IMG/VR virus record: IMGVR_UViG_2718218358_000002
Strand: one strand, 5' to 3'
From: a virus
Taxonomy: Duplodnaviria > Heunggongvirae > Uroviricota > Caudoviricetes
DNA: 36,691 nt
Position 1 is the first letter of the stretch. Every line of letters begins with the position of its first letter. The notes under the pieces are model-generated. The model worked only from the letters and a program-made list of their open reading frames with translations, did no database searches and had not been told where the DNA came from. Both the position numbers and the translations under genes were made by a program. Shown here piece by piece: positions 25,143-30,088 of the stretch.

Positions 25143-25457
25143 GTTGTATGAGCTGACATACCTATAGCACAGAGTAAAGTCTAATCTGACAGTCCGCTCT
25201 GTGCCAAGAGCAGACGCTGGTAATTCGTGCCTAATATACTTCACTTAACTTATATCCCAGCTTTGATACAGATCATACAAATTAAATGCCCCAGTAATTG
25301 GCAGGCTGAGTAACTTAAAACTCCTTAGAATATAGGATGATTTGTATCGGCACTCATTCCACCATGCATTCCGATTAATCCCGCATAGCCAGTTGAACTT
25401 TGCTACTCTGTGAGAGGTAGTACCTTCTATCCAGTGCGGATTTAATTAATGGAATAA

Positions 25458-27461
25458 ATGATTATGAGTGAAAATGATACAACCCCAAAGAAGTCTACAA
25501 GCCAGGTTAACAAAGCGGTATTCTTTACATCTGCTTTGCTAATTTTCCTTCTTGTCGCCTTTGCCGCCGTATTCCCGGATGTCGCCGACAAAAATTTTAA
25601 ACTACTTCAGCAACAAATCTTCACGAATGCCAGCTGGTTCTACATACTTGCTGTGGCCCTGATTTTACTGAGCGTCACGTTCCTTGGACTCTCACGTTAC
25701 GGTGATATAAAGCTGGGCCCAGACCATGCGCAGCCTGATTTCAGCTACCACTCCTGGTTCGCGATGCTTTTTTCGGCAGGGATGGGGATCGGCCTGATGT
25801 TCTTTGGCGTTGCCGAACCTGTGATGCATTATCTTTCGCCACCTGTCGGCACTCCAGAGACCGTTGCGGCAGCGAAGGAAGCCATGCGCCTGACGTTCTT
25901 CCACTGGGGTCTGCACGCATGGGCAATTTATGCCATCGTGGCGCTGATTCTGGCCTTTTTCAGTTACCGTCACGGTCTGCCTTTAACGCTGCGTTCTGCG
26001 CTCTATCCCATTATCGGCGATCGCATTTACGGGCCTATAGGCCACGCGGTTGATATCTTCGCCGTGATAGGCACTGTCTTTGGCGTTGCAACATCGCTGG
26101 GTTACGGTGTATTGCAGGTGAATGCCGGTTTGAACCATCTTTTCGGCGTGCCCATCAATGAAACGGTACAGGTCATTTTGATCGTGGTCATCACGGGGTT
26201 AGCGACGATTTCGGTGGTGTCCGGCCTGGACAAGGGAATACGCATCCTGTCTGAGCTTAATCTGGGCCTGGCGGTGTTGCTCCTGGCGCTGGTCTTGTGC
26301 CTGGGTCCCACTGTGCTTCTGCTGAAGTCATTTGTGGAAAATACGGGTGGTTATCTGTCGGAACTGGTGAGTAAAACGTTCAACCTTTACGCGTATGAAC
26401 CCAAGTCGAGCAACTGGCTGGGGGGCTGGACATTATTATACTGGGGATGGTGGCTTTCATGGTCGCCGTTTGTAGGTATGTTCATTGCACGCGTTTCCCG
26501 CGGCAGGACAATTCGTGAGTTCGTGACTGGCGTGTTGTTTGTTCCCGCCGGCTTTACGCTCATGTGGATGACGGTGTTTGGAAACAGCGCCATCTATCTC
26601 ATCATGAACCAGGGCGCCACTGACCTCGCCAATACCGTTCAGCAGGATGTTGCGCTTGCCCTGTTTAATTTCCTGGAGCATTTCCCGTTCTCTTCCGTGC
26701 TGTCATTCATTGCAATGGCGATGGTCATCGTCTTCTTTGTAACGTCTGCTGATTCGGGGGCAATGGTTGTGGATACTCTGGCATCAGGTGGGGTGGCAAA
26801 CACGCCCGTCTGGCAGCGAATTTTCTGGGCATTGCTCATGGGCGTTGTTGCTATTGCCCTGCTGATCGCAGGGGGGCTGAGTGCGTTGCAAACCGTAACG
26901 ATAGCGAGTGCATTGCCCTTCTCAGTTATCTTATTAATATCCATATACGGACTGTTAAAAGCCCTGCGTCGGGATTTGACCAAGCGTGAAAGCCTTAGCA
27001 TGGCGACTATTGCTCCTACGGCTGCACGTAACCCAATTCCCTGGCAGAGAAGGTTACGCAATATCGCGTATTTGCCGAAGCGCTCTCTTGTGAAACGTTT
27101 TATGGACGACATTATCCAACCCGCCATGACGCTGGTTCAGGAGGAACTTAACAAGCAGGGAACGATAAGCCACATCAGTGACGCCGCCGAGGATCGTATT
27201 CGCCTTGAAGTCGATTTGGGCAACGAGCTGAATTATATATATGAAGTGAGGCTTCGCGGGTATAACTCACCGACCTTCGCGCTCGCTGCGCTGGATAATG
27301 ATGAGCAGCAGAGTGAACAACATCGATATTATCGCGCTGAAGTCTATCTCAAAGAGGGCGGCCAAAATTATGATGTAATGGGCTGGAATCAGGAACAGCT
27401 GATTAATGACATACTGGACCAGTACGAAAAACACCTGCACTTCCTGCATCTGGTTCGTTAA
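25458..27461 (+). CDS. BCCT-family transporter, BetT-like (choline/betaine-type), 667 aa; prophage cargo
   Basis: BCCT signature WTLLYWGWWLSWSPFVG; about 12 TM helices; C-terminal cytoplasmic tail ending QEQLINDILDQYEKHLHFLHLVR, resembling the E. coli BetT tail as I recall it; located in the G-FI variable region. Confidence 0.75.
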   Translation: MIMSENDTTPKKSTSQVNKAVFFTSALLIFLLVAFAAVFPDVADKNFKLLQQQIFTNASWFYILAVALILLSVTFLGLSRYGDIKLGPDHAQPDFSYHSWFAMLFSAGMGIGLMFFGVAEPVMHYLSPPVGTPETVAAAKEAMRLTFFHWGLHAWAIYAIVALILAFFSYRHGLPLTLRSALYPIIGDRIYGPIGHAVDIFAVIGTVFGVATSLGYGVLQVNAGLNHLFGVPINETVQVILIVVITGLATISVVSGLDKGIRILSELNLGLAVLLLALVLCLGPTVLLLKSFVENTGGYLSELVSKTFNLYAYEPKSSNWLGGWTLLYWGWWLSWSPFVGMFIARVSRGRTIREFVTGVLFVPAGFTLMWMTVFGNSAIYLIMNQGATDLANTVQQDVALALFNFLEHFPFSSVLSFIAMAMVIVFFVTSADSGAMVVDTLASGGVANTPVWQRIFWALLMGVVAIALLIAGGLSALQTVTIASALPFSVILLISIYGLLKALRRDLTKRESLSMATIAPTAARNPIPWQRRLRNIAYLPKRSLVKRFMDDIIQPAMTLVQEELNKQGTISHISDAAEDRIRLEVDLGNELNYIYEVRLRGYNSPTFALAALDNDEQQSEQHRYYRAEVYLKEGGQNYDVMGWNQEQLINDILDQYEKHLHFLHLVR

Positions 27462-27468
27462 CAGCAAC

Positions 27469-27497
27469 ATGCCGCCACAGAGGCGGCATTTATTTAT
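27469..27497 (+). terminator. Rho-independent terminator after the BetT-like gene
   Basis: ATGCCGCC-ACAGA-GGCGGCAT 8-bp stem followed by TTATTTAT. Confidence 0.65.
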
Positions 27498-27524
27498 CCC
27501 GGCTGCAATATGAGGGAATGCAGA

Positions 27525-28802
27525 ATGATTTCACGCTGGAAATGGATGCTGAAGCAGACATTTAAAAAACTATGGTTCAGGGCAACGTTATTCGCAATTG
27601 TCGCAATAATAACGGCCCTTTTATCAATTCTTTTTAAATCAATGATACCTGAGTCGGTTTCCGTGAAGGTTGGTGCGGAAGCAGTCGATAACATTCTGAA
27701 CATACTGGCATCGAGTATGCTGGCAGTGACCACATTTTCGCTGAGCATCATGGTCACAGCCTACGGTTCAGCCACTACTAATGTGACTCCCAGAGCTACT
27801 CGTTTAGTTGTTGAAGACGTCACCACACAAAATGTACTGGCCACCTTCATCGGTTCTTTTCTCTTCAGTCTGGTAGGGATTATTGCCCTCAATATGGGAG
27901 CTTATGGAGAAAGGGGGAGAGTCATTTTATTCATTGTAACACTGGTTGTCATTGCCTTAATCCTCATCACATTGCTTCGCTGGATACAGCATTTGACCTC
28001 TCTGGGGAGGGTTGGTGAGACAACGGCAAAAGTAGAACAGGCGGCCATCGAAACATTTATTGCGAGAGCAAGAAATCCCTGTCTCGGCGGATATCCATGG
28101 CTTGAGAACAATGAACAGCCGAAAGGAACGGTTGCAGTTTATCCGAAAAAGATTGGCTATGTTGAATATGTTGATATGGTGAAACTCAGCAAGCTGCTGA
28201 CCAATGATCCCCGTCATGTATACCTCGTGGCGCAGCCGGGCAGTTTCATACATCCGTCCACGCCAGTTTTGTACCTGAGTCAGGGCCAGGAGTCATCAAT
28301 CAGCACCGATTTACTTGAGACGATTATTGTCTCGGATGTACGTTCATTTGCTCAGGACCCCCGATTTTGTCTTAGCGTCATGGCCGAAATAGCCTGCCGA
28401 GCCCTTTCCCCCGCAGTGAACGATCCTGGAACCGCCATTGATGTCATTGGCAGAGGTGTACGTATACTTTCCGCTTACGCGCAGAATAAATCTGATGAAA
28501 TAGAAGTGAAATATCCTTCTGTACATGTTGCACCACTTCAGAATAACGATCTACTTGAAGACTTTTTCTCACCTGTTGCGCGCGATGGTGCCAGTATGAG
28601 GGAAATTCAGATAAGGGTCCTTAAAGGACTGTCGATGCTGAGTAAGGGTTGGCCTGGAATTTTTGCTGAAGCCGCACAAACCCTAGCATTTGAAACATTA
28701 GAGCATGCTACTCGTGCTGACCATATAGATTCTGACAGATATCTAATAAAATCAATTTATTATAATTTATTTAGTGGCGAAGATTCTAATAAAAAACCAT
28801 AG
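27525..28802 (+). CDS. Hypothetical membrane protein, 425 aa (four N-terminal TM helices, large C-terminal soluble domain; possibly DUF2254-like)
   Basis: ATG at 27525 with GAGGGA RBS; four hydrophobic helices in the first 150 aa; AT-rich; family assignment is from memory and uncertain. Confidence 0.6.
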   Translation: MISRWKWMLKQTFKKLWFRATLFAIVAIITALLSILFKSMIPESVSVKVGAEAVDNILNILASSMLAVTTFSLSIMVTAYGSATTNVTPRATRLVVEDVTTQNVLATFIGSFLFSLVGIIALNMGAYGERGRVILFIVTLVVIALILITLLRWIQHLTSLGRVGETTAKVEQAAIETFIARARNPCLGGYPWLENNEQPKGTVAVYPKKIGYVEYVDMVKLSKLLTNDPRHVYLVAQPGSFIHPSTPVLYLSQGQESSISTDLLETIIVSDVRSFAQDPRFCLSVMAEIACRALSPAVNDPGTAIDVIGRGVRILSAYAQNKSDEIEVKYPSVHVAPLQNNDLLEDFFSPVARDGASMREIQIRVLKGLSMLSKGWPGIFAEAAQTLAFETLEHATRADHIDSDRYLIKSIYYNLFSGEDSNKKP

Positions 28803-29752: not shown

Positions 29753-29868
29753 TTTTATTCCCTCAGTAGCATAAGCTATCTATACGTTTTTTAATCCTAT
29801 CAAAGATACAACTTAACGTCAGGAAAATGATAGTGTTTATCTAAGTAATACAATTAACTTCAACGCGT

Positions 29869-29900
29869 GACAGTCTGCTTTTCGCTCAAAGCAGACTGTC
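29869..29900. repeat. Perfect 13-bp palindrome with 6-nt loop (GACAGTCTGCTTT-TCGCTC-AAAGCAGACTGTC) upstream of the HNH gene
   Basis: Read directly; lies in the HNH promoter region and at the right edge of the cargo island. Confidence 0.5.
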
Positions 29901-29964
29901 AGATTTGATAGCGTTTTGGCTATGTAAATTGTCAGTCGGAAAATGAGTGAGTACAAACTAGGAC

Positions 29965-29992
29965 AGGCGGGCGAATTGCCCGCCTTTTCTGT
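29965..29992 (+). terminator. Rho-independent terminator upstream of FI
   Basis: GGCGGGC-GAATT-GCCCGCC stem followed by TTTTCTGTATCTG. Confidence 0.6.
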
Positions 29993-30088
29993 ATCTGTTG
30001 TTTCATCCACTGACCAGACAGATCAAATAGCGTCTCATGCTCTGTACAACAGAAAATAGTTGCACCCATTAACCACGGAGTTAAACGG

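Follow-up and report, generated by a model that had tools for sequence, protein, structure and literature searches.

How accessory genes enter and leave the hotspots of P2-like prophages is the question raised by the 4946-bp interval between the G and FI genes (25143-30088) of a Caudoviricetes genome from IMG/VR (IMGVR_UViG_2718218358_000002); the whole stretch of 36,691 nucleotides is called here the window. The left backbone flank is a homologue of the P2 tail fibre assembly gene G (24615-25142, plus strand; lambda-gpK/P2-G type; PF02413 Caudo_TAP, E 9e-35), and the right flank is a homologue of the tail sheath gene FI (30089-31279, plus strand; Phage_sheath_1, Phage_sheath_1C and Gp18_domIII_N). 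The interval is 100% identical to that of a prophage in Escherichia coli strain S10, which adjoins yegQ and ogrK and has the P2 late-gene order. By synteny with the P2 annotation, the occupant of this position in P2 is Z/fun, which excludes T5. In the window the position holds genes for a BetT-like BCCT transporter, a four-transmembrane DUF2254 protein and, convergent with them, a 269-aa protein with an HNH-like motif. The initial annotation of this DNA recognized all three genes and described them as accessory cargo at the Z/fun position, and the families of the flanking genes and the P2 synteny bear this out. We conclude that the interval is probably a docking locus for site-specific cassette exchange, which now contains two cassettes.

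Three imperfect 24-bp palindromes, absent from the initial annotation, bound and subdivide the interval. Each has 8-bp inverted arms (GTCYGCTN and NAGCRGAC) around an asymmetric 8-bp centre, and the centre occurs in two alternative forms, T1 (TGTGCCAA) and T2 (YTCGCTCW). Exact matches to GTCYGC-N12-GCRGAC number only three in the window, all at cassette borders; with at most one mismatch there are five, compared with 0.29 expected, and none of 100 shuffles reached five. Site 1 is of type T1 (GTCCGCTC TGTGCCAA GAGCAGAC; 25192-25215, plus strand); its left arm belongs to the P2 backbone (ctgacaGTCCGCTC) and its right arm to the first cassette, A. Site 2, also T1 (GTCTGCTT TGTGCCAA CAGCGGAC; 28865-28888, plus strand), forms the junction of cassettes A and B and has no accompanying T2. 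Site 3 is of type T2 (GTCTGCTT TTCGCTCA AAGCAGAC; 29873-29896, plus strand); its left arm belongs to cassette B and its right arm to the P2 backbone (AAAGCAGACtgtcag). All three match the pattern exactly. The outer half-sites are thus P2 backbone, and the inner half-sites travel with the cargo. By its sequence, the layout appears to be that of a simple tyrosine-recombinase core site of the lox or FRT type, with paired arms, an asymmetric centre within which the crossover takes place, and recombination between matched centres.

Cassette A, from T1 to T1, includes the BCCT and DUF2254 genes in 3649 bp between the sites. Cassette B, from T1 to T2, includes only the 269-aa gene. The G+C fractions of the three genes are 0.511, 0.448 and 0.349, respectively, and those of the backbone are 0.51-0.55, so the mosaic composition reported initially stands.

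The cassette borders coincide with the breakpoints seen in natural relatives of the island. IncF-type plasmids carry the block at 99.9-100% identity, and their homology with the window (25189-29891, with the right end at 29887-29891) starts inside site 1 and stops inside site 3. In NZ_CP020517 the block lies beside qnrS1, IS26 and relB, and in NZ_CP021681 CTX-M-15 follows at a distance of about 9 kb. Thirty-four E. coli genomes have the three genes side by side. The initial annotation had named contiguity of the three genes away from prophages as the observation that would speak against hotspot cargo, and in part this is what the plasmids present. Every copy of the block is bounded by the same sites; the association is therefore with the recombination sites and not with P2.

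A second comparison is provided by phage pro147, which has the 269-aa gene only. Here the left arm of site 1 and the right arm of site 2 make up one hybrid site, and precisely cassette A is missing between them. The pro147 gene G is only 88% identical to that of the window, yet the difference is an exact site-to-site deletion. The T2 of pro147, at the position of site 3, was lost by a 68-bp deletion between GATAGTGTTT and GATAGCGTTT repeats (GATAGYGTTT; about 4557-4567 in L004, corresponding to 29839-29905 of the window). This deletion would freeze the 269-aa cassette of pro147 in place.

The most detailed before-and-after pair consists of two plasmids, L001 and L002, with the gene orders 269-aa gene, recombinase, 476-aa gene and 476-aa gene, recombinase, 269-aa gene, respectively. 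Since every segment keeps the same orientation, the rearrangement cannot be an inversion. All four junctions are hybrid sites with arms from different parents, the switch falling within the 8-bp centre, and T1 is paired only with T1 and T2 only with T2. Excision via the T1 pair and then re-integration via the T2 pair would yield precisely this product, which is equivalent to a double-crossover cassette exchange. Site 2 is a breakpoint in this rearrangement as well as in the pro147 comparison. As sites are present at every breakpoint, in the plasmids, in pro147 and in the L001/L002 pair, the island divides into A and B, and the interval consists of two mobile cassettes and not of three separate acquisitions. 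The stepwise acquisition proposed initially is consequently retained as assembly in more than one step, with two units instead of three.

A related arrangement was found in the Qin prophage of E. coli K-12 MG1655 (L228, 5982-6996), where a T1 inside ydfV, which adjoins relB, and a degenerate T2 bracket flxA. The outermost half-sites of the IncF plasmid block have exactly the sequences of those in Qin, atcactGTCCGCTT and GCGGACattagc. Because of this identity, we take the plasmid segment relE'-relB-T1...T2 to be a captured piece of a Qin-type prophage hotspot.

The plasmid gene located between the cassettes encodes a 200-aa protein that consists of a tyrosine-recombinase catalytic domain only (PF00589, E 1e-17). 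It has weak similarity to Xer and Fim-type invertases, far below the cut-offs (the best NCBIfam score is 53.6 against 220 bits), and no PADLOC match. Homologues with 90-93% nucleotide identity were found in 888 of 5426 complete E. coli genomes (about 16%), almost all of them chromosomal; examples are in an island of ATCC 25922 and in a Qin-type prophage, both inside site-bounded arrays. Among species genomes of GTDB there are at least 549 recombinase loci, with 61-95% aa identity among the matches listed. These relatives span Enterobacterales, Alteromonadales, Pseudomonas, Xanthomonadales and Burkholderiales, a range over which the recombinase is unusually well conserved. The INPHARED phage set contains no close relative, the best matches (58% and 50%) being two human faecal contigs. 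One match (L217, among loci L148-L227) is on a 6-kb contig of a bin labelled Thaumarchaeota, which we took as a binning artefact.

In ten of ten Enterobacterales loci, the recombinase gene is preceded by a T2-type site with a fixed proximal arm CATAAGGGACAACCATAC and followed by a T1-type site with a fixed arm CAGCAGCCC, and the distal arms of both sites vary. The gene thus occupies an enlarged T2-T1 junction. Because of this constant flanking by both site types, the 200-aa tyrosine recombinase is the probable catalyst of the cassette exchange. More distant relatives either keep the arms with other centres or have no site recognizable by the pattern used. In Xanthomonadales, palindromes near the recombinase keep the arms and have a different centre, TTCCGGCCA.

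We scanned the G-FI intervals of eight P2-like phages, P2 included. A T1 was found about 60 bp after G in seven of them (P2, 899, vB_YpM_46, R18C, 12474II, 720R8 and pro147), and all seven keep the left half of site 1. The P2 copy is at 15335-15358 of NC_001895. A T2 before FI, with the constant backbone arm seen in site 3, was found in three of the eight phages (899, YpM_46 and Wphi) as well as in the window. Phage 899 has the arrangement T1-[gene]-T2-18 bp-T1-[gene]-T2.

Outside this set, the T1 pattern was matched by at least 120 contigs of IMG/VR; about 30 of the 80 that we examined were P2 G-FI loci, and the others belonged to different prophages. Several loci contain arrays of up to five or six sites. 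In all fetched loci taken together, neighbouring sites have the same orientation in 130 of 131 pairs. T1 is followed by T2 in 82 pairs, with a gap of 424-5779 bp (median 1642), and in 26 pairs T2 precedes T1 at a median distance of 18 bp; retrieval of the loci for these order statistics did not rely on T2 sites. Cassette genes may point either way, and they often have a long upstream region. In E. coli ATCC 25922 (L005, 14757-20500) a 5.7-kb operon for a TonB-dependent receptor and ABC iron uptake lies between T1 and T2, in an array that also includes the recombinase and a homologue of the 269-aa gene; cassettes can therefore be whole operons. Other cassette genes encode hypothetical proteins: the 476-aa protein of L001 (15923-17353), proteins of 314, 449 and 326 aa in L006 (8896-9840, 10388-11737 and 13017-13997), and proteins of 461 and 348 aa in L008 (1313-2698 and 2978-4024). 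The 476-aa plasmid protein has no match in Pfam, NCBIfam or PADLOC. Yersinia phage vB_YpM_46 carries a single gene between G and FI, which at 1350 bp has the same length as the 449-aa cassette gene.

A possible mechanism follows from these observations. The recombinase would be encoded elsewhere and would act in trans on the sites. Since the T1 and T2 centres differ, a T1...T2 segment could be replaced by a double crossover, as in engineered recombinase-mediated cassette exchange, and a T1...T1 segment such as cassette A could leave or enter as a circle. We tentatively extend this scheme to a widespread natural system, in which the 200-aa recombinase serves heterospecific T1...T2 loci of P2-like phages, lambdoid prophages, islands and plasmids; the lambdoid docking loci would be in the DUF977/relB-hokD region, of which the flxA locus in the Qin prophage of K-12 is an example. 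We regard this wider scheme as a possibility that falls somewhat short of an even chance.

Several observations weigh against cassette exchange at this locus. The window carries no recombinase gene, and we infer the activity and the site specificity of the plasmid-borne enzyme from its association with the sites only. Cassette A has no T2 of its own. The T1 of P2 has one arm mismatch, and no T2 is detectable in P2 by the pattern used; several other P2-like phages have T1 only, and pro147 has lost its T2, so many loci may be frozen. Distant homologues of the 269-aa gene are located in mobile elements that have neither T1 nor T2 and no conserved partner genes.

Other routes could have delivered the same genes. 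Homologous recombination between the conserved G/H and FI flanks might have brought in the whole island, with the palindromes as passengers. This mechanism is assumed by recent hotspot papers, and G and FI are indeed conserved (77-100% aa identity) across P2-like phages with different cargo. However, homology with the plasmid, lambdoid and island copies stops inside the 24-bp sites, and there is no G or FI sequence in common; the breakpoints in the cases examined here are inside sites and not in G or FI, the hybrid sites join within 8 bp of identity, and the exact deletion in pro147 occurs beside a G gene of 88% identity. We consider this route improbable. The absence of a recombinase from the window would also suit short-homology recombination, of the Red/RecET type or RecA-independent, acting on conserved patches of about 24-50 bp without a dedicated enzyme, and some contexts do match for about 25 bp beyond the site (from 25167 in L050, L045 and L072). 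The junction arms from different parents, though, have only the 8-bp centre in common, which is too short for such pathways; moreover, these pathways do not account for the exclusive pairing of like centres, for the strict orientation rule, or for the recombinase gene invariably located between T2-type and T1-type sites. We give this explanation little credence.

The model of the initial annotation, in which three genes were acquired singly and form one terminator-insulated module, agrees with the three levels of G+C content, with the contiguity of the genes in 34 E. coli genomes and with the position of the T5-excluding Z/fun. It is very unlikely in view of the fixed pairing of the BCCT and DUF2254 genes and of the occurrence of A with other partners and of B without A, in pro147, lambdoid prophages and islands (141 genomes, compared with 34 for the full block); one of its two insulating terminators is inside the island, and PADLOC gave no match. 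Finally, as G+C-rich, hairpin-forming intergenic sequences, the palindromes could be taken for terminators or for elements resembling repetitive extragenic palindromes, their coincidence with breakpoints being incidental. They lack a T-run, and they have two conserved non-palindromic centres, a directional T1...T2 order, an 18-bp T2-T1 spacing, half-sites that reassort and a linked recombinase gene, which together leave this interpretation almost no probability. Exchange of cassettes between the sites is thus the reading that we retain. Insertion by a transposon or an insertion sequence was also considered and rejected: no insertion sequence or transposase is annotated in the island in strain S10, and the borders are inside the recombination sites. 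Sites of the XerCD/dif or Fim type were rejected as well, as the palindromes resemble neither of the consensus sequences, a comparison that was not computed.

The principle of an exchange locus is already published. According to a review (PMC8987985), Nilsson, Karlsson and Haggard-Ljungquist (2004) described Z/fun as foreign AT-rich cargo with inverted-repeat flanks, also found in bacterial genomes, and proposed site-specific recombination at this locus. The window agrees with that description in the G-FI position, in the inverted-repeat flanks, which are also in P2, and in the occurrence of the same cargo with the same repeats outside P2: T1 is present in P2 itself and in six other P2-like phages, and the block with the same repeats is in IncF plasmids, lambdoid prophages and a CP4-type island. 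In hotspot papers from 2022-2026 the 2004 proposal is not used mechanistically; a 2022 paper cites the 2004 work only for the existence of variable loci, and a 2026 preprint calls the recombination process at hotspots unresolved. Beyond the 2004 citation, we found no description of the site and recombinase system in the modern literature.

Among known systems, integrons have in common with this one a tyrosine recombinase, variable cassette arrays and cassettes that are common to mobile elements, and circular T1-T1 insertion and excision is plausible here. The differences are that the recombinase has 200 aa and a catalytic domain only, whereas IntI has about 320 aa with the integron-specific insertion; that the core sites are double-stranded with an 8-8-8 layout and two heterospecific centres, whereas the integron attC is a folded single strand; and that the recombinase gene lies between cassettes and not at a fixed attI/Pc platform. 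By inspection, with no attC model run, the 24-bp sites lack GTTRRRY, and the window has no IntI-type integrase beside attI/Pc. Engineered recombinase-mediated cassette exchange (Cre with lox/lox2272, Flp with FRT/F3) is similar in its identical arms, incompatible centres and double crossover without vector DNA, and the T1...T2 architecture and the L001/L002 swap follow the same logic. The engineered systems are artificial, with unrelated recombinases and 13-bp arms, whereas the natural one is read from genome comparisons. The pdif modules of Acinetobacter plasmids also consist of discrete cargo between short tyrosine-recombinase sites in many plasmid contexts, but there the enzyme is the XerCD of the host and the dif-like sites, with an 11-6-11 layout, alternate in orientation, in contrast to the different site sequence, direct orientation and dedicated small recombinase described here.

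These comparisons bear on how hotspots change their content. According to current work on P2/P4 hotspots, defence cargo is swapped very fast, and mobile elements that are not related to one another contain nearly the same systems. The locus offers a concrete mechanism, in which the 24-bp sites are of two kinds that do not recombine with each other, the recombinase is a candidate and before-and-after pairs exist in nature, and it suggests that cassette exchange between such sites is how phage hotspots trade cargo. If true, this would be the missing mobilization mechanism by which prophage hotspots rapidly exchange their defence and conversion genes, and would account for the presence of almost the same cargo in elements of unrelated kinds; three things would then be new with respect to the 2004 outline, namely the logic of two centres, the module with the recombinase and the spread of its family in Gamma- and Betaproteobacteria. 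The present locus is of value because its anatomy is known precisely, because recombinant pairs occur naturally, and because it leads both to a candidate recombinase and to resistance plasmids. It shows that cassettes have passed between a prophage hotspot and IncF plasmids of clinical origin, where the cassettes are beside qnrS1 or about 9 kb from CTX-M-15. The locus also draws attention to two widespread uncharacterized cargo families, DUF2254 with a BetT-like transporter, and the zinc-finger protein of about 270 aa, which has no relative with a solved fold.

The first gene of cassette A (25458-27461, plus strand; 667 aa by open reading frame, with the RefSeq start mapping to 25464) encodes the BCCT transporter (PF02028, E 3e-199). 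It passes the curated cut-off of the NCBIfam BetT model (PRK09928; 751.8 against 695 bits) and aligns with K-12 BetT from end to end at 42% identity, with the cytoplasmic (regulatory) extension at the C terminus included. It differs from E. coli BetT, a choline:H+ symporter, in being a paralogue on mobile DNA, without betIBA and always paired with DUF2254. Many matches to the island with 90-95% identity in E. coli genomes were taken, presumptively, as P2-backbone flanks, since chromosomal betT is only 42% identical to the cassette gene in protein. The second gene (27510-28802, plus strand; RefSeq start mapping to 27525) encodes the DUF2254 membrane protein (PF10011, E 1.6e-92; 310.6 bits against a cut-off of 28.8), with four predicted transmembrane segments (hydrophobic by Kyte-Doolittle at residues 20-48, 62-84, 107-132 and 132-165) and a soluble C-terminal part. 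We found no functional literature on DUF2254.

The two genes form a fixed pair in plasmids, a prophage and a chromosome. Cassette A at 99-100% identity also occurs beside other partner cassettes and in a lambdoid context. At about 93% identity the pair is present as one 3.65-kb unit on 1470 PLSDB plasmids, mostly of the IncF type from Klebsiella pneumoniae, where nothing but a degenerate remnant of T1 is left. It adjoins an ars operon on about 1300 IncF plasmids of Klebsiella, for instance in pDA11912.1 (L140, 7001-10640), where only a decayed right-hand T1 is left (GTCTGT TTTGTGGCATAT GCGGGC), and about 565 Klebsiella plasmids keep a 79-bp remnant of the T2'/recombinase upstream region. The chromosome of Leclercia adecarboxylata has the same pair with the same spacing among housekeeping-type genes, without sites. 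The Leclercia copy of the BCCT gene is 94.7% identical in protein and 76% in DNA, which indicates purifying selection and a chromosomal origin of the pair, and cassette A would thus seem to have been captured from an enterobacterial chromosome as a pair of genes. It is likely to give extra uptake of choline/betaine-type osmoprotectants, a form of lysogenic conversion; choline transport is proposed because of the 42% identity to K-12 BetT only.

Cassette B encodes the 269-aa zinc-finger protein (28943-29752, minus strand) with an HNH-like CxxC...DH...CxxCN motif identified in an alignment of 50 homologues, and with a C-terminal domain of unassigned fold. The residues C18xxC21-x8-D30H31VPP-x38-C73xxC76N77, together with D85, H128, W171 and Y173, are common to the homologues; C18 is conserved in at least 90% of the sequences, and C21, D30, H31, C73, C76 and N77 are invariant. 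The protein has no Pfam, NCBIfam or PADLOC match. HNH_5 (PF14279) is matched below threshold by 36 of the 50 members (best E 0.0023), the window protein scoring 11.6 bits against a cut-off of 27.5; five members match Endonuclease_7 and one HNH, also below threshold and always at the CxxC...DH segment. The protein is HNH-like by its motif; it does not reach the threshold of an HNH family. The AlphaFold2 model has a predicted local distance difference test score of 93.4 and a predicted template modelling score of 0.92, and a profile search of PDB gave no hits and Foldseek against PDB and BFVD none at E <= 0.001. The family is found in Gammaproteobacteria, with members annotated as 'chaperonin' or 'metal-binding protein'. 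Its distant members are single accessory genes at the edges of mobile elements, such as a P2-like remnant in Serratia, a filamentous prophage in Vibrio (adjoining DUF2726) and an island in Pseudomonas.

Cassette B was found in 141 of the 5426 complete E. coli genomes, in the P2 hotspot, in lambdoid prophages between the DUF977 gene and hokD, in a CP4-type island and in IncF plasmids. The identical protein (WP_000161640) occurs in the P2 locus, the lambdoid locus and the IncF plasmids. In the CP4-type island, next to Ag43 and together with the recombinase, the cassette is 99.9% identical in DNA and its product has a different accession. Cassette B keeps its own half-sites, and the outer arms vary with the context. 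Most plausibly, the protein would be a nuclease in mobile-element conflict; an anti-phage or exclusion role is a guess based on its genomic position and contexts. None of the three island proteins matched a model of PADLOC-DB 2.0 at E <= 0.1. The suggestion that the three genes together form a defence or conversion module was not borne out: besides the lack of PADLOC matches, A and B occur apart, which makes a three-gene functional module unlikely.

The interval and its border also contain two terminator-like hairpins. The G+C-rich hairpin with a T-run at 27469-27489, terminator-like on both strands, is between the BCCT and DUF2254 genes and thus internal to cassette A. The second one, with a T-run at 29965-29985 (plus strand), is part of the P2 backbone, as seen from the homology with pro147, which starts again at 29906 and continues from there; the pF activator site, by offset from the P2 annotation, maps just downstream of it. 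The initial annotation saw these hairpins as insulating the island from the late operon. The hairpins do exist, but insulation is not shown, because nothing resembling a terminator was detected in the stretch from G to the BCCT gene. An Rfam E-value scan of 24900-30300 detected no RNA element.

Three further features were seen elsewhere in the window. At the other variable locus of P2, the tin/old position after the homologue of the replication gene A, a 490-aa ATPase (7813-9285, plus strand) aligns over its whole length with HEC-04, a PADLOC candidate (E 3e-225); its RefSeq label is 'ATP-dependent nuclease'. At the position of P2 orf30, between S-like and V-like genes, there is a 347-aa hypothetical gene on the opposite strand (18941-19984, minus strand), without a PADLOC match and without a nearby site in the window-wide pattern scan. 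The tail fibre gene H (22521-24611) contains, at about 23050-23500, four near-identical tandem copies of about 44 aa in translation (...LSSATNS.SETLAATPKAVK.AYDLANGKYTAQDATTARKGLVQ...).

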